From an uncultured Alphaproteobacteria bacterium (GTDB taxonomy: Bacteria; Pseudomonadota; Alphaproteobacteria; RF32; CAG-239): a DNA stretch of 64,000 bases. The stretch is taken from the NCBI GenBank assembly GCA_944391465.1, contig CALXTS010000004.1, forward strand, positions 7,942 through 71,941. The letters are read 5' to 3'. The first letter of the stretch is position 1; every line of letters begins with the position of its first letter. A model generated the notes under the pieces. The model saw only the letters and a list, made by a program, of their open reading frames with translations. It did no database searches and was not told the DNA's origin. The position numbers and the translations under genes were made by a program. Positions 4,225-41,343 of the stretch are shown in pieces.

Positions 4225-5196
4225 ATGGAAGAAATTATTTTCCCGAACCAAATCAGAATGTATCGCAGATTACGCGGACGCTCAATGCAAGAATTGGCAG
4301 ACCATTTGGGGGTCAGTTTATCAGCAATTTCTAAAATTGAAAAAGGGTATCGTCGTGTTGATCAAGAGCAGTTGGTAAGAGTTGCCGAATTTTTGGATTG
4401 CCCTTTGCAAGAATTATTTGTCAATGAACAAAATTCTCAACAAGAGATTGTTCAGGCATGGAGACGTGAGCAAGAACGTCGTAACAAAATTAATGAAAAA
4501 ACCGGATTAAAAACTTTAGGTGCCGGATTACGACAAATTCGCAATGAAAAGAATTTAACCCTTATTGAAGTTGCCGAAAGTTCCGATATGACACTTTCTG
4601 TTTATCATAGAATAGAGATGGGACAGAGAGAAGTTTCGGATAAAGAATTCAGGAATATTGCAAAAGCGCTAGGCATTACCGCTGAAGAATTAAAAGAAGA
4701 GATTAAAAGACTTGATGAAAAAGGTATGCTGGAAGAGATTATTCAGCGTAATGATGCAAAATATAAATTACTTTCCAATCCTCGAGGTGCAATTGCTTCC
4801 TTTGGAAATCAGTCTCCTGAAGGAATGAAAATTTCTGTTTACGGCGTGGCCGGAAAAGACGGAAATGTTGTTATTGATTTTGAAGAAGAAGTTAAAAAGG
4901 TTCAGCGCCCTGCGCAGCTTTATAATAAAAAAGATGCATATGCTGTTAATTTGTGCACACGTCGTTTAGGCTCTCTTTTGCCGACACGCTCTATCTTATT
5001 TATTGATCCGCAAGAAGTTGTTAGCGTGGGAGATATTGCCGTTTATTATGAAAATGAGAATGAGGCAAAAATTATTTCCCTTCGTGAAGATGATAATGGC
5101 CAATTATACGGCATTCGTTGGAATCCTGAAGAACGGATTGATTTAGCGAATGATGATTTGTTAAGAGTTCATAAAGTTGTCTTTATCAGTCTTTAG
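4225..5196 (+). CDS. XRE-family transcriptional regulator with two HTH domains and a beta-rich C-terminal domain (possibly a degenerate LexA/CI S24-like fold)
   Basis: Two HTH_3-like segments are present: IRMYRRLRGRSMQELADHLGVSLSAISKIEKGYRRVDQEQLVRVAEFL and LRQIRNEKNLTLIEVAESSDMTLSVYHRIEMGQREVSDKEFRNIAKAL. The C-terminal segment LGSLLPTRSILFIDPQEVVSVGDIAVY...AKIISL loosely recalls the S24 Ser/Lys layout. SD GTGAGG lies upstream. Confidence 0.8.
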   Translation: MEEIIFPNQIRMYRRLRGRSMQELADHLGVSLSAISKIEKGYRRVDQEQLVRVAEFLDCPLQELFVNEQNSQQEIVQAWRREQERRNKINEKTGLKTLGAGLRQIRNEKNLTLIEVAESSDMTLSVYHRIEMGQREVSDKEFRNIAKALGITAEELKEEIKRLDEKGMLEEIIQRNDAKYKLLSNPRGAIASFGNQSPEGMKISVYGVAGKDGNVVIDFEEEVKKVQRPAQLYNKKDAYAVNLCTRRLGSLLPTRSILFIDPQEVVSVGDIAVYYENENEAKIISLREDDNGQLYGIRWNPEERIDLANDDLLRVHKVVFISL

Positions 5197-5338: not shown

Positions 5339-7837
5339 TTGATGATAGATGCAAATGCAACAGCAGAAAGAAGACGCAAAAAACAGAAAGACGGCGAAGA
5401 AGATCCGATTTCTGTTGCTCAGCGTTTTTTAAATATTTATCGTCAGTTACACATTTTCAGTGAAGACAAAAAAGATGCCTTCAATAAAATGTTGCTAGAA
5501 CTTCCCATTGAAGTAAAAAATGCTTTTGGAACACTACCGGGCGGAAGCATGGTTCAAGACTATATTTATGATCTTGAAGATAGTATGGGTGTGGAAGAAG
5601 AGAGTTTTGCTACACCTCAGCCCGAAGAAAATAAATCCAATATTTTACAGACTGCGCTTGCAGAATCAGCGGCCTCTGAAACTCCTTCGGCAGAAAAGGT
5701 TAAAGCAGCTCCACAAATTCAACCGCAAGCACAATTTCAACCCGCTCAACAAATCATAACCACAATGGCTCCATCAAAACTTGAGCTTGGTGGAAATTTT
5801 GCTTCTGAATTAGCTTCTGCTTTAGGAAGTGTCTTGAAGGATACTCGCCAGCCAGCCGCCGTTGCCGGTAACATTGAAACTTCTGCAAAAGTTGAACTTG
5901 GAAAAGATTTCGCAAGTGATCTGGCTGAAGCTATGGCTACGGCTATGAAAAACTCCTTTCCCTTAAAAGAAGAGGCTTCATCAGAATCTCCTAAACCAGC
6001 TTTTGATTTTGGCAAAGAATTAGGAGAGAATCTTAGTCAATCTCTGGCTTCGGCATTAAAAGAGACTTCTCAATTCAGTAATACAGAACTTAAACAATTA
6101 CTTGAAACTATGGAAAAGAATCATGGTCAGGTTATTGAAATGCTTCGACAAGATAGTTCCCAAAATCGTACTGAAATGCAAAACCTTACCCAAATGGTTA
6201 TTCGAGGACAAATGCATTTAGCTAAAGTTGTTGCAGGGAGTAAGGCTTCTTTTGATGAAGAAGACGGAGATGAAAAAGAATCTAAAATTTTAGAATCACT
6301 TAACTCTACTCAACAATTGATTGCCAAGGCTTTAATCAGCCTATCTCAAGCGCAAAAAAAAGATACTGACGAGCTTACACAGACATTGGTTAAGTCTCAG
6401 CAAGAAATGCTAAAAGTTATGCTGCAAAATAACACGGCAAGCTCTGCCAATAACGCCAACAACATTCAAATAAATACTCCTGACAGTTCCGCTCAGTTGC
6501 ACCTTATTGTCGATAAACTTGCTGATATGCAGACCGTAAATACAAAATCTTTTGAGCAAATGATGGAAAAAATGGTTCAGACTCAATCTGAGCTGTATCG
6601 TAACATAGCTGAGACGCAAACAAAAGAATTATCTGCAATTATCACGTTGGCTTTAAAAGAAACACAAAAAGCATCTGCCGAAAATATTATTACGGCTCTG
6701 GGGAACCTTCCGGTCAGAGAGGCCGTTCCGATGCCTGTTTACTATCCGCAGCCTCCGCAAAATTTTGTTCCGCCTTCTGAAATGCCTATGACTGAAAATT
6801 CTTCAGCTTACTCGCAATACGATGCTGCTTATAATCAGGAGCAAAATCTCCCTGTACAAGAAGAATCCGTTCAGCCTTTGTACTCTGATGAGATTCAAAC
6901 ACCTTCTTTTGATACAGCGTATGATACTCCTTCCGATGAAGAAAATTTGCCTTTTGTGAATAACACTTTCGACATTCAGGAACCGGATAATATCACCTTC
7001 AGCAACGATGATATTCTTTCGGATGAAAATGTTTCTCGTAAAAAGAAAAAAAAGAAGAAGAAAAAAAATAAAAATAGCGAAGACATAAGCGCCTTCTCTG
7101 CTCCGGATGTTGAAGAGCAACCTAAACAAACTAAAAATATGTGGTTGGATGAAGAGGAAGATGCAAATTCTTCACTAACAGAAGAAAATTTATCCGCTAT
7201 TGAGGATACTTTGCCTGAAGCATCTTCTTTCGTTAATGTTCAGCTTGATAATGATGAAAATAATTTCATACCAGAGCCGAAAGAATCTGAAAAAGAAGAG
7301 AAACCGAAGCATATTTGGGATATTGACCTGCCAGAATTAGCTGATAATCAAGATATCAATCTTGATGATTTACCTTCTGTTGAACCTTTAGAACTTAATG
7401 ATAGCTCTGATGATTGGGGTTGGACTTCTGTAAATGACACCCCCAAAGAAGATAAAAATATTGAAACATCTTCTATATCTGAATCTTTTGAAAATTCCGC
7501 TTCTTCTGATACCATAACGGATAATTCCCCTCTTAATGATGAAGATATTTATGGAGAAGAAGGACAAGATTGGGTTTGGGATTATGAAGAAGAACCTGCG
7601 AATGATGATTATATTCCTCAAGAAGCCAGCTTTGCTACAGCAAATCTTAAACCTTTAGGAAATTATAATTTTCTTTGCAGTGGGGATTTATATTTTCAAA
7701 AAGATGTCTTCAAAAAACTTGAACAAAATAAAGTTGATTTGGATTTATTTGATGCCGGTGCTCAAATATCATTAAAAAATTTAGTTTCTACTGATGAAAA
7801 TGATGATCCTTATAAAAATAGTGATTCAAAAGATTAA
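5339..7837 (+). CDS. Large acidic low-complexity protein with internal repeats and a poly-Lys tract (unknown function)
   Basis: 832-aa ORF in AT-rich DNA. TTG at 5339 or ATG at 5342 could be the start. Basic N-terminus (RRRKKQKDGEE), three ELGxxFASxLAxAL repeats, Gln-rich helical middle, KKKKKKKKKNKN, and a very Asp/Glu/Asn/Ser-rich C-terminal half. No family recognised. Confidence 0.6.
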   Translation: MMIDANATAERRRKKQKDGEEDPISVAQRFLNIYRQLHIFSEDKKDAFNKMLLELPIEVKNAFGTLPGGSMVQDYIYDLEDSMGVEEESFATPQPEENKSNILQTALAESAASETPSAEKVKAAPQIQPQAQFQPAQQIITTMAPSKLELGGNFASELASALGSVLKDTRQPAAVAGNIETSAKVELGKDFASDLAEAMATAMKNSFPLKEEASSESPKPAFDFGKELGENLSQSLASALKETSQFSNTELKQLLETMEKNHGQVIEMLRQDSSQNRTEMQNLTQMVIRGQMHLAKVVAGSKASFDEEDGDEKESKILESLNSTQQLIAKALISLSQAQKKDTDELTQTLVKSQQEMLKVMLQNNTASSANNANNIQINTPDSSAQLHLIVDKLADMQTVNTKSFEQMMEKMVQTQSELYRNIAETQTKELSAIITLALKETQKASAENIITALGNLPVREAVPMPVYYPQPPQNFVPPSEMPMTENSSAYSQYDAAYNQEQNLPVQEESVQPLYSDEIQTPSFDTAYDTPSDEENLPFVNNTFDIQEPDNITFSNDDILSDENVSRKKKKKKKKKNKNSEDISAFSAPDVEEQPKQTKNMWLDEEEDANSSLTEENLSAIEDTLPEASSFVNVQLDNDENNFIPEPKESEKEEKPKHIWDIDLPELADNQDINLDDLPSVEPLELNDSSDDWGWTSVNDTPKEDKNIETSSISESFENSASSDTITDNSPLNDEDIYGEEGQDWVWDYEEEPANDDYIPQEASFATANLKPLGNYNFLCSGDLYFQKDVFKKLEQNKVDLDLFDAGAQISLKNLVSTDENDDPYKNSDSKD

Positions 7838-10920: not shown

Positions 10921-11889
10921 TTAGGTCACTTCCGTAACCGCACGGAGGTTTCCGTCTCGGTTAATCTGGACTACTCGTAATTTTTGACGCATTTCCTCAA
11001 TTGTTTTCTTGCGGTCTATTGTCGGGTACGTGTGCAGAATTCGATCCGTAAAGGCTTGGTATGCCGCTTCTGAACTTTCTGCGTGAATCGTGGCAAGGCA
11101 GTTATCGTGTCCGGAGCCCATTAACTCCCACAAAGCTCCGGCATTTCCCGTCGAAATCTCTCCGCCAATAATCGCATCCGGCGTGAAACGAACAACCAAG
11201 TCTATTACTTTTGCATAGTTTAAGGCGTTTGTTTGCTCTGTACGAGATAAAACAATATGGACTCTATTGGGGTGCGGAACCATCAATTCTCGGGTATCTT
11301 CAATTGTTAAAATTCTTTTATGAATATCTAAAATCTTAAGCAAGTTATTTAAAAACGTGGTCTTTCCGGTTGCTGTTGCACCACTTACTAAAATGTGGTC
11401 TCCGCGTTTGATACTCAGCAAAAGTCTTTCATACGGATCTTCCGGCTCTTTAATGTCCTTTAACGGATTTATTTTATGTAACTTATGACCTTGCGCCAAT
11501 CCATAGTCGTCCAAACCAAATGCAACATCGTCCGAGTGGACACGAATCGTTAGGGCTATTCCTCCGGTAAGGTCATCATTATCATACATAACATTACGTC
11601 CGCATATGGCGGAAAAACGGTGTTCCCCAGGAATCGCCGCATAAACTACAGGGTTGCCTTGTATCGGGTCAAACGGAAGCTCATAAGTATTGGCTATAAT
11701 ATAAAGCAAATCCGTCAAATATTCTTTTGTTAACTTTTCATCTTTATACATAACCCACGGATAAGCTCTTTTGCCGCGAAGGCGTAGCCAGATTTGTCCG
11801 GCTCTATTAATCGCCACCTCTTCTATATTCTCCTGATTATACCAGTATGATAATGGGCGAAGAATTGATTCCAATACGGCAAAACTCAT
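10921..11889 (-). CDS. virB11: VirB11-type T4SS traffic ATPase
   Basis: Walker A SGATATGKTT, Walker B-like ILTIEDTRE, RFTPDAIIGGEI, His box GHDNCLATIHA. 322 aa, directly after virB10. Confidence 0.93.
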   Translation of the reverse strand: MSFAVLESILRPLSYWYNQENIEEVAINRAGQIWLRLRGKRAYPWVMYKDEKLTKEYLTDLLYIIANTYELPFDPIQGNPVVYAAIPGEHRFSAICGRNVMYDNDDLTGGIALTIRVHSDDVAFGLDDYGLAQGHKLHKINPLKDIKEPEDPYERLLLSIKRGDHILVSGATATGKTTFLNNLLKILDIHKRILTIEDTRELMVPHPNRVHIVLSRTEQTNALNYAKVIDLVVRFTPDAIIGGEISTGNAGALWELMGSGHDNCLATIHAESSEAAYQAFTDRILHTYPTIDRKKTIEEMRQKLRVVQINRDGNLRAVTEVT

Positions 11890-11901: not shown

Positions 11902-14900
11902 TTAAAACAAAGCCGGAACACCACTATTCGTTGTTGTTGTTGATGTATCACTATAGCTTGGGGTAGATGGCGGCGGAGGCGGTGCGCTTACCAAAGCCGG
12001 AGGCGTTGAGGTTGTTTTTTTGGTTTGTTTGGGGGTATCAACCAACGGGGTTGCCGGTTTGGCATCAACATCTCCCTCATCATAAACAACATCGCTGTTA
12101 GCGCTTGATACGGCACTTTGTTTAATGCTGTTGCTTTCATTTGCTTTACGCTCAGCACCTGTTTTTCCGTCATCAATAAATACTGTCGGTTTTTGCAGAT
12201 TCAAGCTCTCGTCTTGATCTCTTTCTACCGTTCTTAACCACAAATCCGTATTCGGATAAACAATAATTCTGGTTCCTGCCGGAATATATGTCATCGGTTT
12301 AATATTTGATTTATCTGCCAGAATCTCATCAAAAATTTGATTCATTTCATTCAGGAAGTTCTCACGAGCATCGTTTGCCGCTTGTTGTCTCGGCGTTTCT
12401 GTCTCTCCGGTTGTATCGCTTGTCGGAGCCATGAAATATGATGTGGCACTGGTCAATGTACTTGTCATAATCGGCAAAGTATATTTTTTGAACAACTGTT
12501 GATCAACATATCCGAGAGCTCCGGCTCGACCTTGAGCATCTCCGGTTAAGCCCTGGAATACAAACAACGAACCATCCGGACGAATCAATCTCTCCCATGA
12601 AATTTGAACGCGAGCAGATTCCGAAGTTGCTTCCGAACTTGCCGTAACGCCACCCAACGTTCCCATTAGGCGGCTTCCGGCCGGAATAATAACATTACGT
12701 CCTTCTTCAGCATAAACATTTCTTTCGACGAACGCCGTAATCGGAGCCGGATTGTTACTGTCAATCGCTCTGGCTATAACTGCAGGAATCGGCTTATCTG
12801 CAAATATCATTTCACTTAAGTCAACTCGCCATGAGGATATGACTTTTCCTATTCCTTGTTCACTCCAATCCTTTTGCATTCCGTCAAATGCCTCTTTACG
12901 GACACCGCTGCTTATTTTACCGACACTGATATTTTTGCGGCGTTCAGACATCGCGGCATTTAATGCGGCTTGTCTTGCTGGCGAATACCTCTCTCCGGGA
13001 CCATATCCTCCGCCGGGACCAAGATTTCCGGCCGGACCCACGCCGATACCATAGGCTCCTCCTTTACCAAAAGTTCCGGGAGGTACAAACATTCCGCCTT
13101 GTGATTTTTCCGCGCCTTCTTCACTTTGAATATCTTTAACACCGATGAGGGTACCTTCATCATCTATAACCAATCCATCAGGCATTAGGCGTCCTAAATA
13201 TTCACCATCCTCGTCAACTACCGTATTATTTTCCAATATCTCACCAAGATACTCGCCGTCCGGTGTCAGTGCTATTCCAAGAGAACGTTTATAATCTCCA
13301 CTTTCCAATAAATTTAAAGCCGGATTATCTTCATCTTGTTTACTTCTTGCAGCTTGATAATTTGGAGCTTTTTGGTACCAATTTGAACTAATGCCGCCTA
13401 TGATATTGCCATTAGCATCAATAACATCGCCTTTTTCGTTAACTTGTCCGATGATTTTACCTTCAGCATTGCGGACTATTCCCGTTGAATCCGCTATTCC
13501 TATTAAATTACCATCTTTGTCATATACTGGTCGATTTCCTATATCGCCGTCTTCGGCTTTTATTTTAATATTGCCATCCAAACCTATAATATTGCCATTT
13601 TCATCTAGTCTACCAATTATGTTTCCGTTGGCATCTACCAGATTACCGTTTTCATCTAAATAGCCCAGAAAATTACCATCTTTATCAAATATCATCTTTC
13701 GTTTGGCTTCTGCACTGACTTGACTGTAATATTGCAACGATGTGGCTTTGGCAATTACTTCTCCATTTAAATTTTTAACGTCTCCATTGCCTTCCAATGT
13801 CCCGATTTTTGCCTGATTGCCATCATAGACATTGCCGTCTAAACTCAATAAACCCACGACTAAACGCGATTTATCTCTAATGTAAAAATCACGGTTTCCT
13901 CTTCCGATGACTTTTTTATCCGTATCCAAAAGAAAGCCTCTGTCTATTTTTCCTATATTCTGATTGCTTAGGCTTAAAACATCCCCGCTTCGACTGATAT
14001 AACCTAAAACATTTCCGTTAACATCATAAATATACAAATCATACAAAGCATATCCAGCCCTTTGATTATTGGAAATAACATAACCGTCGAAATTAACATT
14101 TCCTATCGTTTTTTGAGCATCATCAACAACACTTCCATTCGGCAGAACTCGACCCATAAAACGGTTGTCCAATGAAAACGCATAGCGGTATTTAAATAAT
14201 GTGCCTATTGGCAGACCGGTAATTGAATTTATATTTCCGCTCGGTTGCTGATAGCCTATTATTACATTTTTATCATCAACAATTTTACCGTCTAAAATTG
14301 AATATCCGATAATTTTGTCGCCAAAATCTATTGCAGATAAATATTCTATTGTTTTTCCGTTTAATACACCGCTTTGGTTGCGTAAATTTCCGTACTTATC
14401 AACGCAGCCTATTTTTTCATTATTAAAATTAAGAACTGAGCCGTCCAACCCTGAAAGCCCTATAATATTACCCGTAAAATCAATTACAGGAGCCGGACGG
14501 TTGTAAAAACCTATGACACTGCCGCTATCGCTGATTGCTATGCCGTTATTCAAAAGTTTTCCTAAATAAACACCTCTGTAATTTTGGACATCTCCGCGAG
14601 GAGTAACGACACCTGAAACCTCACAATTTCCGTTAATAACAGCACCAAAATCTTGAAGTTGACCTATAACTATTCCATTTGTATCTACGGCTAAACCGCG
14701 TTCAACAATTTTTCCGATTGTATTACCTTTGACATCATTTACCTGACCATTAATATCTGCATAACCAACCAATCCACCGGTTTGATTTAAAACAACTCTA
14801 GTGCTAAAAGCCTCTCCTATTTTAGGCATATAATCGACAGTTTCTGCCCTGGTTGCCGTTGCGACACTGTTATCCGGAAGAACTTTTGCAATAACATTTA

Positions 14901-16449
14901 AGGCCGTATTCATTACTAGATTTTGCTCAGAAAGGCTTCCTATCAGACCTTGCGTATTAACTGCATAAATAACATCAATTATTTTACCCAAAAGTTGCTG
15001 ATTTTCTCCGATTAAAAATCCTGAAGGTAAAATCTTGCCAACGGAATTTCCTTTAAAATTAACTTGTCCGTTGAAGTCTATCTGTCCACTAACCACACCA
15101 TTAGAGCTATAAACCGTGTTTAAACGGATAGCGCTTCCCGACAACTCACCTTCCGGTGTAAAAACGTATCCGTAAGGTGATACAACGTTGTTTCCGTTAT
15201 TCCCGCTTAATAAGCTGTTGATTCCATTCAACCCGAGTAATGTATTTTGTGCATTAAAAAGCAGGCTATTCCCCAAAACTGCACCAACCATACGACCGGA
15301 TAAATCGTATGCATCACGACCAACCATATAACCTGTCGGAGTTCCACTAAGATTAATAACGCTACCGTTTGAAAGCGCATGGCCTCTCAGACTTCCTTTA
15401 AAATCAAATATCGGGCCGGTTGCGTTCAGTTGTCCAACTTGTGAACCGTCTGCTCCGAAAATAACGCCGCGAGCTCCGACCAAAGCACTAACCTCTCTGG
15501 CTTTTGACAGATTTCCGTCCGGCATAACGCGGCCCAGATATTTACCTTTTAAATCTGTTGCCGTTGCCGCTATATCTACGCTATAACCAATGACATTCCC
15601 GAGATTGTCGACTATTTTTCCGTCAGCTCGCAGGTTCCCTAATAATTTCTCATTATCTACAACTTCTCCATTATAGGTTACAAAACCCATATAGAATCCG
15701 TTATTATCAAAGGCATAGCCTGATTTTACAATCCGTCCGATAATTTGATTTTCTGCGTTATATGCAAACCCATTAGCTTTAATTCTGCCTATGATATTTG
15801 AATCGAAATCGGATACCGCACCTCCTGGAACGACACTACCGATAAATTCTCCACCAAGCGACACAACCATTTTTGATGATATTAAACGACCATCTAGCAC
15901 ATATTCGGTTCCGAGTTGGCGGTATGCGTATCCGTCAGGTGTTACTATTCCTATTTGTTGTCCCTGAAGATTGGTATATAGACCATCTCCGGTAATACGA
16001 CCTATCGTTTTTCCTTCATCTGAATAAACAAGCCCCGGAAACAAAACTCCACCGATGATATCAAAGTAATCATTAACGACCAGTCCATTCGGTAAAACTT
16101 TTCCGACAATCTGCCCCGATGGAAGACGGACCGAGCCATCATTATTTACTTTTCCTAACAATTTAGCATCGTTACCGATGGCTATACCTTGCGGAATAAC
16201 ACCTCCAATCAGACGACCATCAAAATTAATAATCAAACTGTCTGCGGTAACATTTCCGATTAACTGATTATCAAATCCGACTACTTTACCATCAGGAATG
16301 ACTTTTCCTATTAAATCTCCATTAAAATCTATTGCCGTAATTTCTTGAGCTGAAAGAGCTTTGGTTCCAAATGATAAAAACAAACTTGCCGCGATCAAAC
16401 CTTTGATTGCAGTTTGGATTTTTTGAGATATCTTTAATCCAAATTTCAA
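11902..16449 (-). CDS. virB10: Giant VirB10/TrbI homolog (1515 aa) with a huge N-terminal repeat region
   Basis: The C-terminal ~300 aa (DNA ~12130-13000) look like the TrbI/VirB10 barrel: WRVDLSEMIFADKPIPAVIARAIDS, VIIPAGSRLMGT, ARVQISWERLIRPDGS, GDAQGRAGALGYVDQQ, MTYIPAGTRIIVYPNTDLWL. TTG start at 16449 is preceded by GGAGG embedded in the end of the upstream ORF. The N-terminus is signal-like, followed by ~950 aa of repeats, a Gly-rich segment and a Pro-rich tail. Confidence 0.9.
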   Translation of the reverse strand: MKFGLKISQKIQTAIKGLIAASLFLSFGTKALSAQEITAIDFNGDLIGKVIPDGKVVGFDNQLIGNVTADSLIINFDGRLIGGVIPQGIAIGNDAKLLGKVNNDGSVRLPSGQIVGKVLPNGLVVNDYFDIIGGVLFPGLVYSDEGKTIGRITGDGLYTNLQGQQIGIVTPDGYAYRQLGTEYVLDGRLISSKMVVSLGGEFIGSVVPGGAVSDFDSNIIGRIKANGFAYNAENQIIGRIVKSGYAFDNNGFYMGFVTYNGEVVDNEKLLGNLRADGKIVDNLGNVIGYSVDIAATATDLKGKYLGRVMPDGNLSKAREVSALVGARGVIFGADGSQVGQLNATGPIFDFKGSLRGHALSNGSVINLSGTPTGYMVGRDAYDLSGRMVGAVLGNSLLFNAQNTLLGLNGINSLLSGNNGNNVVSPYGYVFTPEGELSGSAIRLNTVYSSNGVVSGQIDFNGQVNFKGNSVGKILPSGFLIGENQQLLGKIIDVIYAVNTQGLIGSLSEQNLVMNTALNVIAKVLPDNSVATATRAETVDYMPKIGEAFSTRVVLNQTGGLVGYADINGQVNDVKGNTIGKIVERGLAVDTNGIVIGQLQDFGAVINGNCEVSGVVTPRGDVQNYRGVYLGKLLNNGIAISDSGSVIGFYNRPAPVIDFTGNIIGLSGLDGSVLNFNNEKIGCVDKYGNLRNQSGVLNGKTIEYLSAIDFGDKIIGYSILDGKIVDDKNVIIGYQQPSGNINSITGLPIGTLFKYRYAFSLDNRFMGRVLPNGSVVDDAQKTIGNVNFDGYVISNNQRAGYALYDLYIYDVNGNVLGYISRSGDVLSLSNQNIGKIDRGFLLDTDKKVIGRGNRDFYIRDKSRLVVGLLSLDGNVYDGNQAKIGTLEGNGDVKNLNGEVIAKATSLQYYSQVSAEAKRKMIFDKDGNFLGYLDENGNLVDANGNIIGRLDENGNIIGLDGNIKIKAEDGDIGNRPVYDKDGNLIGIADSTGIVRNAEGKIIGQVNEKGDVIDANGNIIGGISSNWYQKAPNYQAARSKQDEDNPALNLLESGDYKRSLGIALTPDGEYLGEILENNTVVDEDGEYLGRLMPDGLVIDDEGTLIGVKDIQSEEGAEKSQGGMFVPPGTFGKGGAYGIGVGPAGNLGPGGGYGPGERYSPARQAALNAAMSERRKNISVGKISSGVRKEAFDGMQKDWSEQGIGKVISSWRVDLSEMIFADKPIPAVIARAIDSNNPAPITAFVERNVYAEEGRNVIIPAGSRLMGTLGGVTASSEATSESARVQISWERLIRPDGSLFVFQGLTGDAQGRAGALGYVDQQLFKKYTLPIMTSTLTSATSYFMAPTSDTTGETETPRQQAANDARENFLNEMNQIFDEILADKSNIKPMTYIPAGTRIIVYPNTDLWLRTVERDQDESLNLQKPTVFIDDGKTGAERKANESNSIKQSAVSSANSDVVYDEGDVDAKPATPLVDTPKQTKKTTSTPPALVSAPPPPPSTPSYSDTSTTTTNSGVPALF
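13450..16330 (-). repeat. Coding tandem repeats, ~17-18 aa period (x-DG-x-V-x-D-xx-G-xx-IG-x-V), inside virB10
   Basis: Example: DGKVVGFDNQLIGNVTADSLIINFDGRLIGGVIPQGIAIGNDAKLLGKVNNDGSVRLPSGQIVGKVLPNGLVV. The pattern continues to DENGNLVDANGNIIGRLDENGNIIG. Boundaries are approximate. Confidence 0.8.
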
Positions 16450-16452
16450 GCT

Positions 16453-19400
16453 CTAGTTCCTCCGATTTTTGGCGACTTCCTGCAAAACATAGCCGGAGAC
16501 TTTCTTATCTAAGTCAATAAATGAACCGTTATTTTTTATGTGCCCTATGTTAACACCTTGTCTATCAATAACGTTTCCTTCGGCGTTTAATCTCCCTCTA
16601 TATTCACCATCATTTCCCAAAATAGTCGTTCCGATTTTAAATATTTTTCCTATGATATTGTCATTTTGATCAATTGCCAAGCCACTCGATAAAGTTCTAC
16701 CCAGAATAGTACCGTCTTTACCTGAAATTGTACCATCACGATTTACATAACCGACAACTTTATCCATATTATCTATCACAATATCACCAAACAAAACTTC
16801 TCCAATAAGTTTTCCGGCAACATTAATAACATTTCCGTCTGATAGAACTCTCCCAATAACAACATTGCTTTTACTGATAACACTTCCGTCCGGACGAACG
16901 GTCCCTATATTATTTCCGCCAAAATCTATGACAGACCCATGATGTAAAAGGCTTAAATTAATATCTGTCGAACCTCCGGGAAGGACAGCTGTTATGATAT
17001 CCCCTTTCATATCCATTACATCTCCCAGGGCGTTTAGCAATCCCTTATAATTTCCCCAAATATCAACCATTATATTTTCAGAAATAACTTCTCCGATAAC
17101 TTCAGATTTTGTATCAACCACTTTGCCATCATGTGTTGCAAAACCTACAACAGAACCTTTGGTGTCAATGATGCGTCCGTCTATTGATGCATATCCTATA
17201 TATGAACCATCATAGCCAATGGCGGCTCCTGTTTTAGCTACGCCCCCCTGATATTCTCCTTTGCTGTCTATAAACTGCCCTTTGGGGTTTATTTTACCGA
17301 GTTTATCCCCATAAATACTCAGTAGGGTTCCGTCATACTCACTATTTCCGACATAGCTTCCTTTTAGGTTCAATATTTTTCCATGAATTGCGGGCATTCC
17401 CAAACGGCCATTATAATATCCGTTTCCATCGCCTTTTATTTTTCCTTGCGATATACCTTTGGTATCGTAGATATTTCCGTCAGGGAACAAGGTTCCGATG
17501 AGATTACCATATGCATCGACAATCGCCGTTTTCGAATCCAGTGCCGTTCCTAAAATCTCATTATTTTTCCCGACGACTAAATTATTTGCCGTTAAGCGCG
17601 CAGACGGCTTTCCATAGATTTTAACTTCACCTCGATTATCAACTTTATTTAGATAGTTTCCATCTAAATCAAATGCATATTTTTCACCTACATATTTACC
17701 GATATAGGCTCCTTGATTATTAAATACCTCTCCGTAAATACCGACACAACCGACTGCTGTCCCTGCATCATTTATCACTAGGTTATTATCATCTATTTTT
17801 CCGAGGAAATAGCCGTCAAAATCAACAGCGGCTCCGCTCTTCATTATTGCACCGACAATATTTCCTTTTTCATCCAAAACGGTTCCGTCAGGATTCATAC
17901 AGCCAACATATTTATTGCTGGCATCTTTAACTATACCGCTACTGTCTGCTGTTCCCAATATCTTACATTTATTATCAAATACTTTACCGATTTTTGCAAC
18001 CTCTCCGATGTATTTCCCTTCCGAATCGGTAACTATTCCCTCAGGCGTTATTTTATGCCCCGTTTCCTGATTTCCTTTTTTTACTTTTCCGTCTTTATCC
18101 AGATACCCTATCTGTTTGCAGCCGTATCCGACAATGAAGCCTCCTCTGACCATTTTGGCTACAATACGAGAACCATTAGGCTCACGAACCAAACCATTGG
18201 GAAGAGTTCTGCCCACAACTTGTTTCAAATCATTCTCAACTGTTCCGTCATTTTGAACTGTTCCCAACAACATTCCCTGCGGAGTTATTGGAACTTTATT
18301 TAACGAAACAAGTTTTCCGATAATATTACCGTTTTCATCAAATTCGACTTCATCACCTACAAAGCCTATTACATTTCCGTTTAAATCGACTATTGTTCCG
18401 TCTTCTAGCATACGGCCAATAATGTTGCCATTTATATCTATCAGATTACCATTTTCATCGACATAGCCGATGATATTACCATCTTTATCATAAGCTACTC
18501 GAAGTTTCTTTCCTTTCAGCGGCGCTTTCTCTGAAATAACGTTACCGTTTTCATCAACCGTTCCGACAACATTACCATTGGCATCAACAACGCTGCCATC
18601 TGGCATGACAACGCCAATTACGTTTCCGTTTTCATCAATCGCAACACGCCCTGGTTTAGTTACATAGCCAATAACGTTTCCGTTCGCATCAACCACGGTT
18701 CCGTCCGGCAAAACCTTTCCAATAACGTTTCCATTTAAATCAACCACGGTTCCGTCCGGCAAAACCCTACCGATGATATTTCCGTCCTTATCATAAACAT
18801 ATCCGGTTTCAACCGCTTTTCCTATAACTTTACCATTTAAATCAACCACCGTTCCGTCCGGTAAAACTCTACCGATAATGTTACCGTCTTTATCAACAAC
18901 CGTTCCGTCCGGATTTACATAGCCGATTAAATTACCAAATTCATCATAGACAGCACGCCGATTTTCTCCAACACCTATGACATTACCGTCTTTATCCATA
19001 ATCAAACCATTTTCGCCAACGCGGCCGATAATATTACCATTGGCATCACGAACATAGCCATCTTCATCTATATAACCAATAACTTTTCCGTCCGGACCTA
19101 TGGCTAAACGTACGGTCTTTGGTTTTTCTCCGCTTCCTTCCGCCGTCATTCCCGGAACATTTTCGCAAATTTTGCAATCTTCTTTAACAACTGCATTTCC
19201 GGTAACCGGAACTTTTGTTGTTTTTGCATTTGAACTGCTTAAGCTAAGCTCATGCCAGGTAACCAAAAAATTGTTTTGCACATTGCCGGCAATAACCGGA
19301 AGCCACGTCATGCTGATATTGCAAGTTTCTTTTCCGGATAAACTTTTTCCACTACATTCATCCTTAAAAGTAAAACCATCCGCAGGAGGATCTGCCAACT

Positions 19401-27230: not shown

Positions 27231-28567
27231 ATCATACCCTCCAACATTTCTGGGTTACTTATTGTCCCTTTTAAGGCTTCTCCCGTATCTTTCAACTCAT
27301 TAGCCGCATCTATTGCTGCTGTGGCCTCATCTTTTATTGTACCTACTTTATCTTTTACATCATTATATGTACTTATGGCTTTATCAGTTTTATCTTTCAA
27401 ATCACTAACCGTTGATTTTGCGGAGCTGACTTGCCCCATTAAACTGGTATCTTTACTTCCGTACTCACTGTAATCACAAAGTTTGAATTTTGAATATTTT
27501 TTATTAACCTCTTTCGGGGTTAGTTTTGCCGCAGCTACCGTACTCTCTAAAATCAAATCATTAACAACCATCTCGGCATATTTATACAAAAGCTCTATCT
27601 CTTGTGTCATGACTTTTGTATGAACTCCCGATGTTTCTGATTCTCCCGGAGTTACTTTTGCTAAATTTTTGTTGGCATTAACTTCATCTATCAGTTTTGG
27701 TAGGGAGGCTTGTGTTCTTAAGGCTTTTTCATAAACATCGTATATGGCTTGCCTACGGTTGGAATAACGTTTTTCTTTCATGTCATTATTAGAAGCTATG
27801 GTTACTTTTTCTCCTGCTTGCAAAAAAATCTCATTCTTTGCGTTTTCAAGTGCCTCTGTCGGTACAGATAAAGAAATTTGCTCATCGCTATATAACTCAA
27901 GCATTCTGTTGCTCAAGGTTACAACTTTTTCGCCTTGATCTTTGAGCTTTTTATTATAGCTGTCTTCTAAATTGCCCTTGCTGTTATCAAGAGATTTTAG
28001 TTCTTGCTCTTGTTGGATTTGTAGATTTTCAATTGTTCTCTGGGCTGATTCTAATTCGGTATCGGTATAATCACCGCTATTTTGTAATTTAGACAGATTT
28101 TCTTGTGCTGCTGCAATCTTTTGAGCATATTTTTTCTCAATAACGCTTACCTGTTGTTCCAGTTCCTCTATTTTTTCTTTTTTCTCACTTTCAATATCTT
28201 TTAATTCTTTTGAGGCTGTTGCTATCTGTTTACTTATTTGCGCAGCTTTATACTCATTACTGTTGAGCACAGCGTTTTTATTGTCATTATAAAATTCCAT
28301 TGCGGCTTTATATTGGTCTTGAACAAATTTAAACCCATCTTTGGCTGCTTTAACTCCGTCTCCGACTAGTTTACCCATTTTAGAGCTACTAACCCATTGC
28401 ATTGCTTTCTCGCAGTTGGCTTTTATTTTACCAAACCATAAGCTCAAACGTGATGGGGTCTTCATTGTATCATTAACGCCGGCAATCTGCGCCTGAACTT
28501 CCGTCGCATAAAAAGGCGTTATTATAAGCATAACCATGATTCCGAAGGCTATAAAAACTTTTTTCAT
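27227..28567 (-). CDS. Secreted 446-aa coiled-coil protein, T4SS-associated, unknown function
   Basis: Signal peptide MKKVFIAFGIMVMLIITPFYATEVQAQ. Lys/Glu/Gln-rich helices. 4-nt overlaps with both neighbours. Confidence 0.7.
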   Translation of the reverse strand: MKKVFIAFGIMVMLIITPFYATEVQAQIAGVNDTMKTPSRLSLWFGKIKANCEKAMQWVSSSKMGKLVGDGVKAAKDGFKFVQDQYKAAMEFYNDNKNAVLNSNEYKAAQISKQIATASKELKDIESEKKEKIEELEQQVSVIEKKYAQKIAAAQENLSKLQNSGDYTDTELESAQRTIENLQIQQEQELKSLDNSKGNLEDSYNKKLKDQGEKVVTLSNRMLELYSDEQISLSVPTEALENAKNEIFLQAGEKVTIASNNDMKEKRYSNRRQAIYDVYEKALRTQASLPKLIDEVNANKNLAKVTPGESETSGVHTKVMTQEIELLYKYAEMVVNDLILESTVAAAKLTPKEVNKKYSKFKLCDYSEYGSKDTSLMGQVSSAKSTVSDLKDKTDKAISTYNDVKDKVGTIKDEATAAIDAANELKDTGEALKGTISNPEMLEGMI

Positions 28568-29058
28568 TTTTTATCTCCTTCTTCATCTGTCGGACGAGCC
28601 AACGGCAATATAGTTTCAACACCTTCAAGCAGCGATATTTTAGCCTCTAACTCAACTATTGAATTCAGACGTTCCGCAATTTTACTCAAATTCCCTTGAA
28701 TATCATTAGACAATACTTCATTTTTATTTTCAGAACCGCCAAGTTTGGATAAAAGACCATCTGCAGCACCTTCCGTGCTTGATTTTTTTGCATCATTTAT
28801 AAGTTTTACTCGGGTGGTCATAGCTGATGCATATAAATCTGAAGCCAAATCAAATCTTATTTGTTCCGACTTGGCATTAAATGCCATACCTCCTTCAATT
28901 CCGCCTTCATTCAACAGTGCATCGCTGATGCTATCTATATTGGCTCTGACATCATTAGGATCTTTGATAAATGAATAAACGTCTATTGCCAATGCTTCTT
29001 GTTTTAGGCACAACAAGGTAAGAATCAGAATAAAAATATATATCATTTTTTTACTCAT
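28564..29058 (-). CDS. Small secreted helical protein (164 aa); VirB5-sized but unproven
   Basis: Signal peptide IFILILTLLCLKQEALA. Predicted helical by composition. Overlaps its neighbours (translational coupling). Confidence 0.6.
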   Translation of the reverse strand: MSKKMIYIFILILTLLCLKQEALAIDVYSFIKDPNDVRANIDSISDALLNEGGIEGGMAFNAKSEQIRFDLASDLYASAMTTRVKLINDAKKSSTEGAADGLLSKLGGSENKNEVLSNDIQGNLSKIAERLNSIVELEAKISLLEGVETILPLARPTDEEGDKK

Positions 29059-30352
29059 GTTTTATTACCTCCGTTGTTGCTTGCAGATTTTTTCCGAAAA
29101 TTCGGCGGCGAGACACAGAATCCGAAACCTTATTCAAAATTACTGCTGAATCTTTTAATTTTTTACTTACATCTTCTTTGTTTTCTTCTGTTTTAATACT
29201 ATTTATTTGATTTTTCTTTTCTATTTGCATAAGTTGTTGCTCAAAACTGATGCTTGTTTGCGGCAACAGCTTTTCTTTGCTCTGACTTCCTTCCTCTTGT
29301 TTTATTTCTTCTGCTTGTTGTTTTATATCATTTACAGAAAGTTCCTGAAGAGCCATATTTTCCAGATTAGGTAATTCACCGGCTGTTTCTTTTAATTCAT
29401 CTCCGTCTATTACGCCTTCTTTATTTGCAACACTACTGATTGTATTTGCCCGTTCCAACAAATCATTTGATTGCTGAGACATGGTTGGTATTGTTAAGTC
29501 TTGCATAGAATCGCTCAAATTAACATTCGCACCTTCCGCCATACCTACATTTTGCGTTAATTCCGGAGAGGCATTTACCACCATTTCATTGCTCCCTCCG
29601 CTTGGCACAGAACTTGAACTCATTACATTCGGACTGCTTGCACTTATATCTGAGCTGTTGTTGCTTATTGATGCTGAAGGGACGGTAACTATATCTTCTC
29701 CACTGCTTTTACTGCTAAAAGGCGTTCTTTCGACTGCTGATGATACTTTATTTTGCGCCGCTGAAATTGCTGAACCTGCAGTATCTTTAAGCGCTCCTGT
29801 GGTTTCTTTCAGCGCAGAGGCCGTTTCTTTTGCATCATTAACGGCTGTTTTGGCATCTTCCACCATTCCTTTGGCTTTTTCATATTCTGCTTTGGCATCA
29901 TCAATATCTGATTTTATATTATTATATTCTTCTTTGGCTTCATTTATTTTATCTTGAACGTCATTTTTAAATTCAACGGCTTTTTCAACCTTATCGTTTA
30001 CCCAATCTTTGGCATCATTAATTTTATCTTTGGCATTATCATATTTTTCTTTTGCACTATCGTATTTTGCTTTAGCTTTATCTAACTTTTCTTTCATTTC
30101 TTTTGCTTTTTGAGCTCGCTTTGCAGCTTTTGATACCGCATTAATGTCTCCCAAAGCTCCGATTTTTCCGTTTATATAATTGGTTGCATAGCTTGCTATG
30201 TTTTCTTGCGCGGTTCCTGCCGCATTAACATAAACGGCAGCCGTGTCTATCGCATTAATTATCGGATCCGTTGAGGCGGCAAAGGCAATCCTTTCGTTAT
30301 AAAAAAATAACGAAATCAGAAAAAAAGCCGATATCAGAATTTTTTTTGCCAT
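29051..30352 (-). CDS. Secreted protein with LEA/apolipoprotein-like Lys-Asp-Ala amphipathic repeats (433 aa)
   Basis: The ORF track starts at 30415. ATG 30352 (MAKKILISAFFLISLFF...AFA) has an AAGGAAAGAGG SD and avoids overlap with the upstream gene. Repeats: DKAKAKYDSAKEKYDNAKDKINDAKDWVNDKVEKAVEFKNDVQDKINEAKEEY. Confidence 0.65.
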   Translation of the reverse strand: MAKKILISAFFLISLFFYNERIAFAASTDPIINAIDTAAVYVNAAGTAQENIASYATNYINGKIGALGDINAVSKAAKRAQKAKEMKEKLDKAKAKYDSAKEKYDNAKDKINDAKDWVNDKVEKAVEFKNDVQDKINEAKEEYNNIKSDIDDAKAEYEKAKGMVEDAKTAVNDAKETASALKETTGALKDTAGSAISAAQNKVSSAVERTPFSSKSSGEDIVTVPSASISNNSSDISASSPNVMSSSSVPSGGSNEMVVNASPELTQNVGMAEGANVNLSDSMQDLTIPTMSQQSNDLLERANTISSVANKEGVIDGDELKETAGELPNLENMALQELSVNDIKQQAEEIKQEEGSQSKEKLLPQTSISFEQQLMQIEKKNQINSIKTEENKEDVSKKLKDSAVILNKVSDSVSRRRIFGKNLQATTEVIKHE

Positions 30353-30362
30353 GCCTCTTTCC

Positions 30363-30971
30363 TTATTCCATATACTCATCCTCAATCTTGGCTGAGCTGT
30401 TACTGTTAAATTCATTTTGGCGATAATAATCTAGGGCTCTTAATGCCAATAATTCCGAATATGTGTCTATTATACCGACAATGCGTTCTCCGGTTAATGC
30501 CGTCAAATTAACATTTTCACATTGCCTACGATGTATTTTGCTACCTCCGTCTTCATCTCCGCCTATTGCTGAGGCTGCGTCCCCTACTGCGCCTCCCGAA
30601 TTATCTTTGCAATCATCTATAACTTTAGATATTTCATCTTTATAATCATCACTTTTTGAACGTTGTTGCAAAGACTTATACAGATATTCCGCATTTACCT
30701 GATGATATGCCTCATTAAAAAACGGATCATATTGAATATAACTTAATCCATCACTTTCTCTGAGGCGCAGAATTTTATTTAAACATTTTTTTACCGTGCC
30801 GTCCGTATGTATATCTGTTGAGGATATATCACAAAATAGGGCAAATTTCTTAGGAAATATCAAAACGCCATCGCTACCTCGGCCATTATCCTTCCCCAAT
30901 TGTGCAAAAGATTGTGGGGCATAAAATAATGCCATTAAAAAGACAGCAATTATTTTAAATGAAAATCTCAT
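30363..30971 (-). CDS. Secreted 202-aa protein, unknown function
   Basis: The ORF track starts at 31034. ATG 30971 (MRFSFKIIAVFLMALFYAPQSFAQ) follows GGAGGG and lies after the upstream stop at 30982. Confidence 0.6.
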   Translation of the reverse strand: MRFSFKIIAVFLMALFYAPQSFAQLGKDNGRGSDGVLIFPKKFALFCDISSTDIHTDGTVKKCLNKILRLRESDGLSYIQYDPFFNEAYHQVNAEYLYKSLQQRSKSDDYKDEISKVIDDCKDNSGGAVGDAASAIGGDEDGGSKIHRRQCENVNLTALTGERIVGIIDTYSELLALRALDYYRQNEFNSNSSAKIEDEYME

Positions 30972-30981
30972 TATCCCTCCA

Positions 30982-32679
30982 CTAATCTTCCGTTTGAGTT
31001 CTAAAATCATACTTTGAAATGTCGTAATTATCATAGCTTTCGAGCAATACTTTGGTTGTGTATAGCTTTAACAGACCACTGATTGTCGTTACTATTGTTT
31101 TATTGGTTTCTACTATTTGCGAATAAATATCTTTTGTCGTATCTGTTTGAGCAAAAGAAATTGACGGGACGATGTCATCGATCATTTTTTGCACATCTGA
31201 AAGTGCTTTATATCCCTCAACCATGTAAACTATTGCCAATTCTCTTTTCCCGTCATAATAATCTTGGCGAGGATTTTTAAATTCTTGAGAAAGTGCTCCA
31301 GACGAGGAATCATTTATTGAAACTAAGCATTCGTCAATGGCATATTTGTTTCTACCTGTACTGTTTAACGCTGTTTCAGATGTTAGCCCACAACGTTTGG
31401 CTATTGGCTTGGGAATAATAAAGTTCTTATTAATATCAGTTCCGTTATCCTCAAGGACTGCAAATTTTGCAAAAGCTAATTTACTATTTTGGGCTATTTT
31501 TGCTTTTCCTCTATAGCTTTCCTCATAAAAAGACATCTTATCTTTACTGAAAACTTTACGCGTCGGTGAGACTTCTAATGTCTTTTCTTGCAGTCTTTTC
31601 TGAATACTTTTGGTTGTATATGGATTTTCAATTACCTGTTTTGTTGCCGTATTTCCGGAATTTTGAATTGCTTGAATGCTGACGGCATTTCCTTTTAGTG
31701 TCGGAGAGTTTGCACTTGAAAGAGCACCTACATTATTGCTTATACTGACTCCGCCTACTCGATTAACAGCAACATTTCCAGCTTTTACAACACCTAAGGC
31801 ATTCTGCGTATTTAGGTTTACACTTCCAGTTATTGCTTTATTTTGGCTTATTTGACCAGTTGCCATGTTTCCGCTTGGTATTGCACCGACCATATTTTGT
31901 GCACCTAAACTTGCAACTCCATTTCCTGTTATTGCTTGCTGTGCCGTACTTCCTGCCGTATTATTAACTGCTAAAGCCTCATTATTTGCCGATGCTTGGT
32001 TTCCGCTAAATGCTACTCTGCTTGAGGTTGGAGAAACTGCTGAGTTTTCTTCTCCTCCCGTTAATGCTGTCCCACTGCTTGCTAATGTGCTTTCCGGTTG
32101 TAGTTCACCTGTTTCTACTGCTGATTCAGAATCTGCTCCACTTACAGACAAGCCGTTGGAACCTCCCTCTGATGAACTCCCTAAACCTGCTTTTTCTTTA
32201 ACACTGTTTATTTTACTGCTCGCAATATCTCCTGCAGCTGAAGCCATCTCTTTTGCCGCACCTACTGTTTCCGTAGCTTGTTCTTTTAAATCTTTGGCTT
32301 GTTGAATGCCGTCTTCGGCCATTTTTTTGTATTCTTCATACTCTCTTTTATATTCTTCATACTCTTCTTTATACTCATCTACCTGAGCTTTATAATCTTC
32401 ATACATCTTTTTCTTTTCGGCAATTTCTGCAGCTATGTCTCCGCCATATTCACTAATACTCTCTTTGGCTTCCCCAATTGCTGCGCTTGTCTTTTGAGCA
32501 AAAGATATGGTATCTTGCACTATCTTTAAGTCTTTTAAATCATTAAACCAGTTTTTGACATTATTTATACCGCTCTTAATGTCATTCGTTATCGCAAGAG
32601 CTTGAGATTCTGATATTTGTTGCGTTGTGGCACAGATAAACGCTATAAGAACTATTTTTGAAAACTGACCGATTTTCAT
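30982..32679 (-). CDS. Secreted 565-aa protein: coiled-coil N-terminus, Ser/Gly/Asn/Ala-rich middle, globular C-terminus (unknown function)
   Basis: Signal peptide IAFICATTQQISESQALA, then EYKEEYEEYKREYEEYKK, then a low-complexity stretch GNQASANNEALAVNNTAGSTAQQ. First gene after virB4. Confidence 0.65.
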   Translation of the reverse strand: MKIGQFSKIVLIAFICATTQQISESQALAITNDIKSGINNVKNWFNDLKDLKIVQDTISFAQKTSAAIGEAKESISEYGGDIAAEIAEKKKMYEDYKAQVDEYKEEYEEYKREYEEYKKMAEDGIQQAKDLKEQATETVGAAKEMASAAGDIASSKINSVKEKAGLGSSSEGGSNGLSVSGADSESAVETGELQPESTLASSGTALTGGEENSAVSPTSSRVAFSGNQASANNEALAVNNTAGSTAQQAITGNGVASLGAQNMVGAIPSGNMATGQISQNKAITGSVNLNTQNALGVVKAGNVAVNRVGGVSISNNVGALSSANSPTLKGNAVSIQAIQNSGNTATKQVIENPYTTKSIQKRLQEKTLEVSPTRKVFSKDKMSFYEESYRGKAKIAQNSKLAFAKFAVLEDNGTDINKNFIIPKPIAKRCGLTSETALNSTGRNKYAIDECLVSINDSSSGALSQEFKNPRQDYYDGKRELAIVYMVEGYKALSDVQKMIDDIVPSISFAQTDTTKDIYSQIVETNKTIVTTISGLLKLYTTKVLLESYDNYDISKYDFRTQTED

Positions 32680-32754
32680 CTCAACCTCCTGTTCATCCTA
32701 CCATAGTTCTATGATAGCAGATTTTTGCAATTAAATAAACGGCTTTGCCCTTAT

Positions 32755-35467: not shown

Positions 35468-35555
35468 GTTTTATTCCCACCTTTGTTTTATGATAAGCTG
35501 TCTTATTTTTTTATGCAAGCAAAACGCCAAATTTGCACATATTTTTATTATCCTC

Positions 35556-35590
35556 AAAGAGGTATCCTCATATTTCAAGGATACCTCTTT
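35556..35590. terminator. Perfect 12-bp-stem hairpin between the giant gene and virB3 (orientation ambiguous)
   Basis: AAAGAGGTATCC (35556-35567) pairs with GGATACCTCTTT (35579-35590). The long T run (TTTTTT) lies on the + strand side. On the - strand (the sense strand of both neighbours) only UUU follows the stem. Confidence 0.35.
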
Positions 35591-35650
35591 TTTATGAATA
35601 ATGCGTTAATATTCTTGTTTTGAAGATTTGTTTATGGATTTTGTTATCCT

Positions 35651-41284: not shown

Positions 41285-41343
41285 CTCGTCCTCCTATGCT
41301 TTAATAATTTGTCCGTGTGGACTTTCTGATTCTTCAGCCTAAG

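Follow-up and report, generated by a model that had tools for sequence, protein, structure and literature searches.

Beta-flower repeats in a giant VirB10 of an uncultured alphaproteobacterium: a probable two-gene VirB10 with separate anchor and barrel chains

VirB10 bridges the inner and outer membranes of a type IV secretion system (T4SS) and lines its core complex, as outlined in reviews of these systems (PMC9371333; PMC6362355). How such a bridge is built from an unusually long chain, and where that chain is anchored, are the questions raised by a 64,000-nucleotide (nt) stretch of DNA (hereafter, the window) from an uncultured Alphaproteobacteria bacterium (GTDB lineage RF32; CAG-239; assembly GCA_944391465.1, contig CALXTS010000004.1, positions 7,942 to 71,941). 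An open reading frame (ORF) of 1515 amino acids (aa) in the window had been read, in a preliminary description made from the letters alone, as a giant VirB10 in which tens of short repeats precede a TrbI barrel. The analysis reported here indicates that this ORF is probably the outer-membrane-proximal chain of a giant VirB10 split between two genes, ~2600 aa in total, in a chromosomal VirB-type T4SS. The ORF immediately upstream, here called pX, which the preliminary description had passed over, would supply the remaining half of this VirB10. The features discussed are collected in Table 1.

The identity of the ORF is established by its C-terminal region. Pfam TrbI (PF03743) matches at E 9e-37 (127 bits, with the cut-off at 35) over profile positions 2-188 of 188, and a phmmer search of PDB sequences with the C-terminal 405 aa returns Helicobacter pylori ComB10 (2BHV, E 4e-21) as the best match, with further matches to TrwE, TraF, Xanthomonas VirB10, and CagY (8CB2, E 7e-5). 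Both searches bear out the earlier proposal of a giant VirB10 whose TrbI barrel is C-terminal. The best NCBIfam models are ComB10 (NF038092, E 2.8e-34) and VirB10 (NF038091, E 1e-30), for which the ORF scores below the equivalog cut-offs (118.4 vs. 300 and 106.8 vs. 220 bits, respectively); judged by these profiles, it is a divergent VirB10/TrbI member and not an equivalog. The operon order, according to Pfam and NCBIfam, is VirB4 ... VirB8, VirB8, CagX/VirB9, pX, VirB10, VirB11, and virB-type gene order is also kept in the 25 related loci listed.

Ahead of the barrel, aa 37-1105 of VirB10 form a repeat region of ~1070 aa made of 17-residue units; the long array had been recognized before, and its extent exceeds the ~950 aa then given. 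An AlphaFold2 (AF2) model covering aa 1-1130, for which 40 homologues were used, predicts 119 short strands, or ~60 hairpins, in agreement with the tens of 17-residue DG/NG units noticed in the letters. The start-to-start spacing of the strands alternates between 8 and 9 residues, which gives the period of 17, and DSSP assigns a cycle of a 5-residue strand, a 4-residue loop, a 3-residue strand, and a 5-residue loop. The loops are of the types pdg and dangn, and the beta-flower [DNEQ]xxG tip motif is present. A hidden Markov model (HMM) of the 17-residue unit, seeded by a regular expression, under-counted the repeats (39 partial matches) and was replaced by the AF2 strand count. Both peptides quoted in the preliminary description were located, at aa 48-71 and 931-955.

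The preliminary description had left these repeats unassigned. Bflower_2 (PF21785) matches VirB10 at E 2e-58 (195.5 bits against a cut-off of 38), Bflower (PF21784) at E 3e-20 (73.1 bits against 25), and DUF3659 is also matched; when aa 35-1134 are cut into 10 overlapping 200-aa fragments, each of these matches Bflower_2 at E<=0.01, five above the gathering cut-off. According to these matches, the repeats belong to the Pfam beta-flower/DUF3659 families. The earlier view that they are not pentapeptide repeats stands, with no pentapeptide family among the Pfam matches and a period of 17. The phasing of the 200-aa fragments gave no flower boundaries because the Bflower profile is itself internally repetitive, and a PDB sequence search with the array gave no match. 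The beta-flower fold, published in 2023 on the basis of AlphaFold models, is a shallow barrel in which 8, 10, or 12 short strands run antiparallel, with [DNEQ]xxG-tipped hairpins as its "petals" (PMC10584680). Each described beta-flower is a small, single domain of ~96 aa; among them are lipoproteins and domains wrapped around a helix, and the family is without known function (PMC10584680).

The VirB10 model has a mean predicted local distance difference test score (pLDDT) of 84.6 and a predicted template modelling score (pTM) of 0.75. The pLDDT exceeds 90 over most of aa 37-901, lies at 60-80 over aa 918-1019, and drops below 50 in a spacer at aa 1027-1053, which is predicted to be disordered, as is the model beyond aa 1109. 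A fixed block (aa 35-909) accounts for 101 strands, and six lie at aa 1056-1105, where the alignment has invariant columns between S1056 and G1103. A pTM of 0.75 over 1130 residues suggests that the array would be a single rigid body and not a string of beads.

Rhs and teneurin YD shells are the top Foldseek PDB matches of the model (E ~3e-23 to 1e-17). Together with weak RHS_repeat/YD matches in pX (E 6e-15, with no single stretch passing) and in VirB10 fragments (E 0.003-0.005, below cut-off), and with one source that labels a homologue 'YD repeat-containing protein', this could point to a Rhs/YD-type shell or surface adhesin fused to the barrel, acting as a toxin-encapsulating cocoon or in extracellular display. 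However, the Foldseek TM-scores for the whole 1130-aa model are 0.06-0.09, with a root-mean-square deviation of ~29 Å, and the likeness is therefore at the level of local hairpins only. The beta-flower HMMs score far higher, and Pfam detects no Rhs core, toxin, or plug domain. Furthermore, the array is placed in the periplasm by topology, since it sits between the periplasmic N-terminus and the VirB10 barrel. A shell or adhesin of this kind is highly improbable.

The N-terminus of VirB10 had been described as resembling a cleavable signal rather than a cytoplasmic tail followed by a transmembrane (TM) helix, and this is borne out by hydropathy and by the site pattern of its orthologues. With a Kyte-Doolittle value of 1.6 in a 19-residue window as the threshold for a TM helix, no window of the VirB10 leader attains it, compared with 2.95 in pX; the cytoplasmic tail and inner-membrane TM helix that a canonical VirB10 has in its own chain are found on pX and not on the VirB10 ORF. 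In the alignment of 40 homologues the first ~30 residues are free to vary, with a basic n-region and an uncharged run of ~15 residues retained. Across 54 orthologues the n- and h-regions vary and are followed by an invariant QEITAI(D/N)FNG(D); position -1 is Ala in 49 and Ser in 5, position -3 is Ala, Val, Thr, Ser, or Leu, and position +1 is Gln in 49 of the 54. A cleavable signal is well supported by the variable leader, the small residues at -3 and -1, the invariant mature start, and a hydropathy below threshold, from which cleavage at A34|Q35 is inferred.

The anchor that VirB10 seems to lack is found on pX. Its Bflower_2 match (E 7.5e-61) reveals the same repeat family, and its AF2 model (pLDDT 79, pTM 0.67) consists of a TM helix, a disordered spacer, an eight-strand immunoglobulin (Ig)-like beta-sandwich at aa 94-202, and an array of ~100 strands, or ~50 hairpins, at aa 229-1103, followed by a short conserved C-terminal helix, GYVLQEVAKNRRN. 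A PDB sequence search with the N-terminal domain of pX gave nothing useful. In 55 species-level loci the gene next upstream of VirB10 is a pX (1068-1397 aa), and in 51 of these the two are separated by -4 to +6 nt. Within each array, conservation peaks at the terminus that faces the split site: 0.94 for the pX C-terminal GYVLQEVAKNRRN, and 0.84-0.88 for the VirB10 N-terminal QEITAIDFNGD... This pattern fits docking of pX and VirB10 at the split site.

The relatives of the barrel point in the same direction. In a library-wide search with aa 1111-1515, the nearest relatives are all giants, comprising the split pair's own type (1400-1888 aa) and a second group of 1930-2406 aa at 33-50% barrel identity, whereas normal-sized VirB10s turn up only at ~30-40%. 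Members of the second group (e.g., P0199, 1930 aa; P0174, 2266 aa; P0218, 2406 aa), which are uncharacterised database entries from sister lineages, resemble the split pair in barrel, in repeat family, with beta-flower arrays ahead of TrbI barrels, and in a terminal xLF, but are single polypeptides. These unsplit giants open with the motif S..xY[IL][KR]K[ST]NR, followed by a TM helix, the two being common to 16 of them, and then by a pX-like Ig-like domain; motif, helix, and domain are all shared with pX. For instance, pX aa 12-182 align with aa 1-174 of P0199 at 32% identity (E 3e-21), and the P0199 locus, which adjoins housekeeping genes, runs VirB8, CagX/VirB9, VirB10, VirB11, without a pX gene between virB9 and virB10. 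By alignment, pX maps to the N-half of the unsplit proteins (P0218 2-1195 by BLAST; pX 13-1104 on residues 6-1144 by hhalign) and VirB10 to the C-half (P0218 925-2235; P0174 827-1927 plus the barrel). In a rough neighbour-joining tree of the barrels, drawn without support values, the split-type proteins form one cluster nested among the unsplit giants, with the normal-sized VirB10s outside. Shorter beta-flower-VirB10 matches (696-1291 aa) were considered as intermediate architectures and set aside, as they begin in mid-repeat and are probably fragments.

These data bear on two other explanations of the gene pair. The first is that VirB10 is self-sufficient, with an uncleaved N-terminal helix as its inner-membrane anchor, and that pX is an accessory paralogue derived by duplication of the array. 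AF2 does model aa 3-28 as a helix, and the VirB10 array fits the N-half of the unsplit proteins nearly as well as the C-half, which is compatible with duplication. On the other hand, the h-region is short (a median of 15 uncharged residues) and under the TM threshold, positions -3 and -1 keep small residues, the leader is variable while the mature N-terminus after it is invariant, only pX has the motif, TM helix, and Ig-like domain that start the unsplit giants, and pX is missing where VirB10 is unsplit (P0199). A self-sufficient VirB10 is therefore unlikely.

The second is an artefact, namely a mis-assembly or mis-called ORF, or one VirB10 gene broken by sequencing error or by a TAG that is read through. 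In the window, pX and virB10 do share a frame, parted by the TAG and one codon, and the GGAGG ribosome-binding site of virB10 falls within the last codons of pX. However, the two-gene layout recurs in all 55 species-level loci, with relative frames 0, 1, and 2 in 12, 13, and 30 of them and TAA, TAG, and TGA stops in 26, 20, and 9; as all three frames and all three stops occur in other species, read-through is not required. Each VirB10 begins with its own signal peptide, and identical proteins are present on several independent contigs. An artefact is scarcely credible.

In the architecture proposed here, VirB10 would be exported by the Sec pathway and cleaved at A34|Q35, yielding a mature protein whose rigid periplasmic array of ~60 beta-flower hairpins begins with a fixed block of ~51, continues with an expandable module and a module of three hairpins, and is followed by a Gly/Pro-rich linker and the barrel. 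pX carries the cytoplasmic tail, the inner-membrane anchor, the Ig-like domain, and a second array of ~50 hairpins. The two chains would associate in the periplasm and thereby rebuild the bridge between the inner and outer membranes, either through contact of the near-invariant pX C-terminus with the invariant mature N-terminus of VirB10 or through lateral packing of array on array. With the arrays repeated around the ring of the core complex, a large rigid periplasmic scaffold would take the place of the flexible Pro-rich linker; its role, though not its sequence, would be analogous to that of the expanded repeats in CagY and DotG.

Several considerations weigh against this architecture or parts of it. 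The physical pairing of pX and VirB10 is inferred. KNRRN at the pX C-terminus overlaps the virB10 ribosome-binding site, and its conservation may be partly at the nucleotide level. The leader of VirB10 may, less probably, act as an uncleaved signal anchor. The VirB10 array aligns similarly to the N- and C-halves of the unsplit proteins (hhalign scores of 869 vs. 903), and the in-register alignment of pX with VirB10 scores 687, compared with 748 for a shifted self-alignment. Since shifted self-alignments score as high as in-register ones, fission and tandem duplication with reciprocal loss are both candidate origins of the split. As regards structure, AF2 may over-pack repeats, and the VirB10 model is compatible both with hairpins arranged in discrete 4- or 5-fold flowers and with another superstructure. 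Finally, VirD4 or a relaxase was not detected within the window.

An extension of the proposed architecture is more tentative and rather doubtful: two non-covalently joined chains with ~110 hairpins per pair, repeated by the ring symmetry, could make up a rigid periplasmic cage or sheath without precedent. If so, this cage or sheath would have to transmit the signals sent by the inner-membrane ATPases to the outer-membrane gate, gigantism of VirB10 would have been reached by a third independent route, and the beta-flower fold would have its first assigned cellular role. As the fold lies in the Tubby-like clan (CL0395), the arrays might also bind lipid or cell-wall material.

The giant size and the repeats of VirB10 had suggested a likeness to H. 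pylori CagY. The likeness holds for size; as to function, in-frame recombination is contradicted by the diverged DNA copies and by an indel-free block. In an alignment with 40 homologues, whose identity goes as low as 50%, aa 35-915 are free of indels of >=5 aa, and the distance from the mature N-terminus to a QYYS landmark is 870-874 aa in 38 species. All of the length variation among orthologues (family range 1448-2113 aa) maps to one module, aa 910-1023, which spans 76-463 aa and correlates with total VirB10 length at r=0.996. In the long orthologue L039 this module holds 183/204-nt tandem units of 75-82% identity, which, from their sequences, are old duplications of blocks of 3-4 hairpins. 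pX likewise has a single length hot spot (aa 424-492), with the remainder fixed. The sole clear DNA-level tandem array of both genes lies in a clean-repeat region of pX upstream of that hot spot (18668-18937, reverse strand); its 4.4 copies repeat every 51 nt (17 aa), with 64-91% matches.

Variation between species, in a giant VirB10 with a repeat region and with tandem units in its long orthologues, would be in keeping with a CagY-like contingency locus, in which frequent in-frame recombination varies the repeats and thereby tunes secretion or evades the host. Nevertheless, direct DNA repeats within virB10 are short (24-130 nt) with copies only 60-83% identical, Tandem Repeats Finder reports no array scoring >41 inside the gene, and the duplicated units of long orthologues have already diverged by 18-25%. 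The comparison of copy number among strains, proposed in the preliminary description, gave no repeat variation: five members of a 100% cluster are all 1515 aa, and strains within 90% clusters show no change in repeat number, their VirB10s differing only in the start codon called, in the length of a poly-Ser run by one residue, and by a 15-aa insert in the barrel. A contingency locus is very unlikely. The alignments instead describe the VirB10 array as a structure conserved in position, with a single expansion site that evolves slowly, and not as a recombination rheostat, and copy number appears to shift slowly, by tandem duplication at one hot spot per chain, and not as a strain-level switch.

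Table 1. Coordinates of VirB10, its segments, and adjacent secretion genes in the window.
Feature	Position	Strand	Description
VirB11 ATPase	10921..11889	-	NCBIfam VirB11 E 9e-41 and Pfam T2SSE
VirB10 ORF	11902..16449	-	1515 aa; TTG start 3 nt past stop of upstream ORF pX
VirB10 aa 1406-1515 and stop	11902..12234	-	Low-complexity Pro/Ser/Thr tail; ends in conserved P-A-L-F
VirB10 aa 1215-1405	12235..12807	-	TrbI/VirB10 beta-barrel (Pfam, NCBIfam, PDB phmmer)
VirB10 aa 1106-1214	12808..13134	-	Conserved Gly/Pro-rich linker and pre-barrel segment (alignment)
VirB10 aa 1024-1105	13135..13380	-	Disordered spacer and conserved 3-hairpin module (AF2, alignment)
VirB10 aa 910-1023	13381..13722	-	Variable-copy DENGNIIG-type clean hairpins, 6 here (alignment, AF2)
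VirB10 aa 35-909	13723..16347	-	Fixed beta-flower array, ~51 hairpins of 17 aa (Pfam, AF2)
VirB10 aa 1-34	16348..16449	-	Sec-type signal peptide; predicted cleavage ALSA|QEITA
pX/VirB10 junction	16447..16470	-	...AAT CGG AGG AAC TAG AGC TTG
pX	16453..19794	-	1102-1113 aa; likely start M12 at 19761 per homologues
VirB9/CagX homologue	19770..21452	-	560 aa (long); Pfam CagX E 4e-11
Two tandem VirB8 paralogues	21460..23242	-	245 and 251 aa; Pfam VirB8 E 1.6e-25 and 5.5e-16

Between the array and the tail, the linker of VirB10 has the near-invariant columns GAYG.G..GNLGPGGGYGPGERY, and the part of it that was modelled (aa 1109-1130) is predicted to be disordered. The final P, L, and F columns of the tail are near-invariant, and the unsplit relatives finish in PRLF or PELF. 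Every giant VirB10 examined, split or unsplit, ends in P-[AER]-L-F or has at least a terminal aromatic residue (11902-11920, reverse strand, in the window). This motif resembles the C-terminal Phe signature of outer-membrane proteins.

The neighbouring genes add several observations. The VirB9/CagX homologue has a weak C-terminal SPOR match (E 5.9e-4, 20.6 bits against a 21-bit cut-off); SPOR domains bind peptidoglycan, and through one on VirB9 the core complex may be anchored to the cell wall. The tandem VirB8 pair is kept in most of the related loci listed, and duplicated VirB8 is reminiscent of Rickettsiales systems. The remainder of the operon (23259-41985, reverse strand) encodes large proteins with signal peptides, of 1323 aa (23259-27230) and 1877 aa (35651-41284), and five ORFs of 164-565 aa at 27227-32679, four of which have signal-like leaders in a hydropathy scan, all without a Pfam match; it also encodes a 213-aa protein with three hydrophobic segments (41344-41985); a multi-TM VirB6-like protein was not recognized in 23259-41985 by Pfam and hydropathy. 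A divergent type IVb pilus cluster adjoins the T4SS operon on the forward strand (42900-56311), with TcpQ, a secretin, PilO, a T2SSE ATPase, and a T2SSF platform protein, at least three PilS/bundlin-like pilin paralogues, and two unscanned ORFs of similar size.

On the other side of the operon, an ORF of 700-890 aa that follows virB11 in distant loci was considered as VirD4 and rejected, having no Pfam match. In the window, an 832-aa ORF ~3 kb away on the opposite strand (5339-7837, forward) matches such a post-virB11 ORF only in its first 86 residues (56% identity, E 2e-29; the matching distant-locus example is L027 12392-14845), and this shared N-terminus may be a conserved module on otherwise different proteins. 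Strong tandem DNA repeats lie downstream of virB11 in two related loci, with 213/183-nt units in L074 (13783-14658) and 99-nt units in L060 (15571-16251), 77-93% identical; the L074 consensus translates to an acidic, Glu-rich sequence, and neither set of repeats is related to the beta-flower repeats. Near the secretion locus (4225-5196, forward strand) lies a gene for a 323-aa protein with two Cro/C1-type helix-turn-helix domains, which could be a regulator.

The same Pfam architecture is present in at least 120 clusters at 90% identity (1470-1767 aa). Among GTDB species representatives at least 125 loci were found, and the 80 listed all have gut, rumen, or faecal titles of the metagenome-assembled-genome type; the carriers are labelled Alphaproteobacteria/Proteobacteria CAG:495, Candidatus Scatocola, or 'Azospirillaceae'. 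From these records, uncultured Alphaproteobacteria of the gut and rumen appear to include a clade (CAG:495, Candidatus Scatocola, and relatives) in which the giant-VirB10 T4SS is conserved. The homologues bear only the database names 'hypothetical', 'YD repeat-containing', and 'conjugation trbI family'.

VirB10 and the beta-flower are already known as components, and their co-occurrence has been recorded by automatic Pfam annotation. The preliminary description had asked whether the repeat might belong to a family already known in VirB10 proteins. The family is indeed a described one, but no paper placing it in VirB10 was found: a full-text search returned none linking beta-flower, PF21785, DUF3659, or RF32 to VirB10 or T4SS, and searches for a split or signal-peptide VirB10 and for CAG-495/Scatocola gave papers of which none proved relevant from its title or abstract. 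Neither the giant tandem array nor the two-gene split appears to have been described. The microbiome literature found on the host taxa consists of abundance-type studies, and the secretion system may be central to the interactions of these uncultured carriers with their hosts or neighbours. VirB10 is seen as the physical and energetic link between the inner-membrane motor and the outer-membrane pore of the T4SS, and a natural VirB10 cut into anchor and pore chains would offer a ready test of whether this coupling needs covalent continuity. The beta-flower fold, in turn, gains a concrete structural context in very long, positionally conserved arrays of a secretion machine.

Compared with canonical VirB10/TrbI proteins (Agrobacterium tumefaciens VirB10, pKM101 TraF, R388 TrwE, and H. 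pylori ComB10), the VirB10 of the window has the same barrel and the same position between virB9 and virB11, but it is 3-4 times longer, begins with a signal peptide instead of a tail and TM helix, and has its probable anchor on a separate gene. The Pro-rich periplasmic linker of the canonical proteins is replaced by ~60 beta-hairpins and a Gly-rich segment, and a Pro-rich stretch follows the barrel. H. pylori CagY is likewise a giant VirB10 homologue with a repeat region ahead of a detectably related barrel. Its repeats, however, are of an unrelated type, highly similar in DNA and recombining in frame within a single membrane-anchored chain (PMC10706595), whereas the protein described here has beta-flower hairpins, diverged DNA copies, a positionally conserved array, and a probable split into two chains. 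In Legionella DotG/IcmE, a protein treated in a review of its system (PMC7511231), a barrel of the VirB10 family also comes after a long repeat region; DotG has pentapeptide repeats and belongs to a type IVB system, while the units here are 17-residue beta-flowers in a VirB-type IVA system. With the described beta-flower/DUF3659 proteins, the arrays share the HMM match, the tip motif, and short antiparallel strands with two loop lengths. Those proteins are single domains of ~96 aa, whereas VirB10 and pX carry ~60 and ~50 tandem hairpins, respectively, in subunits of a secretion system.

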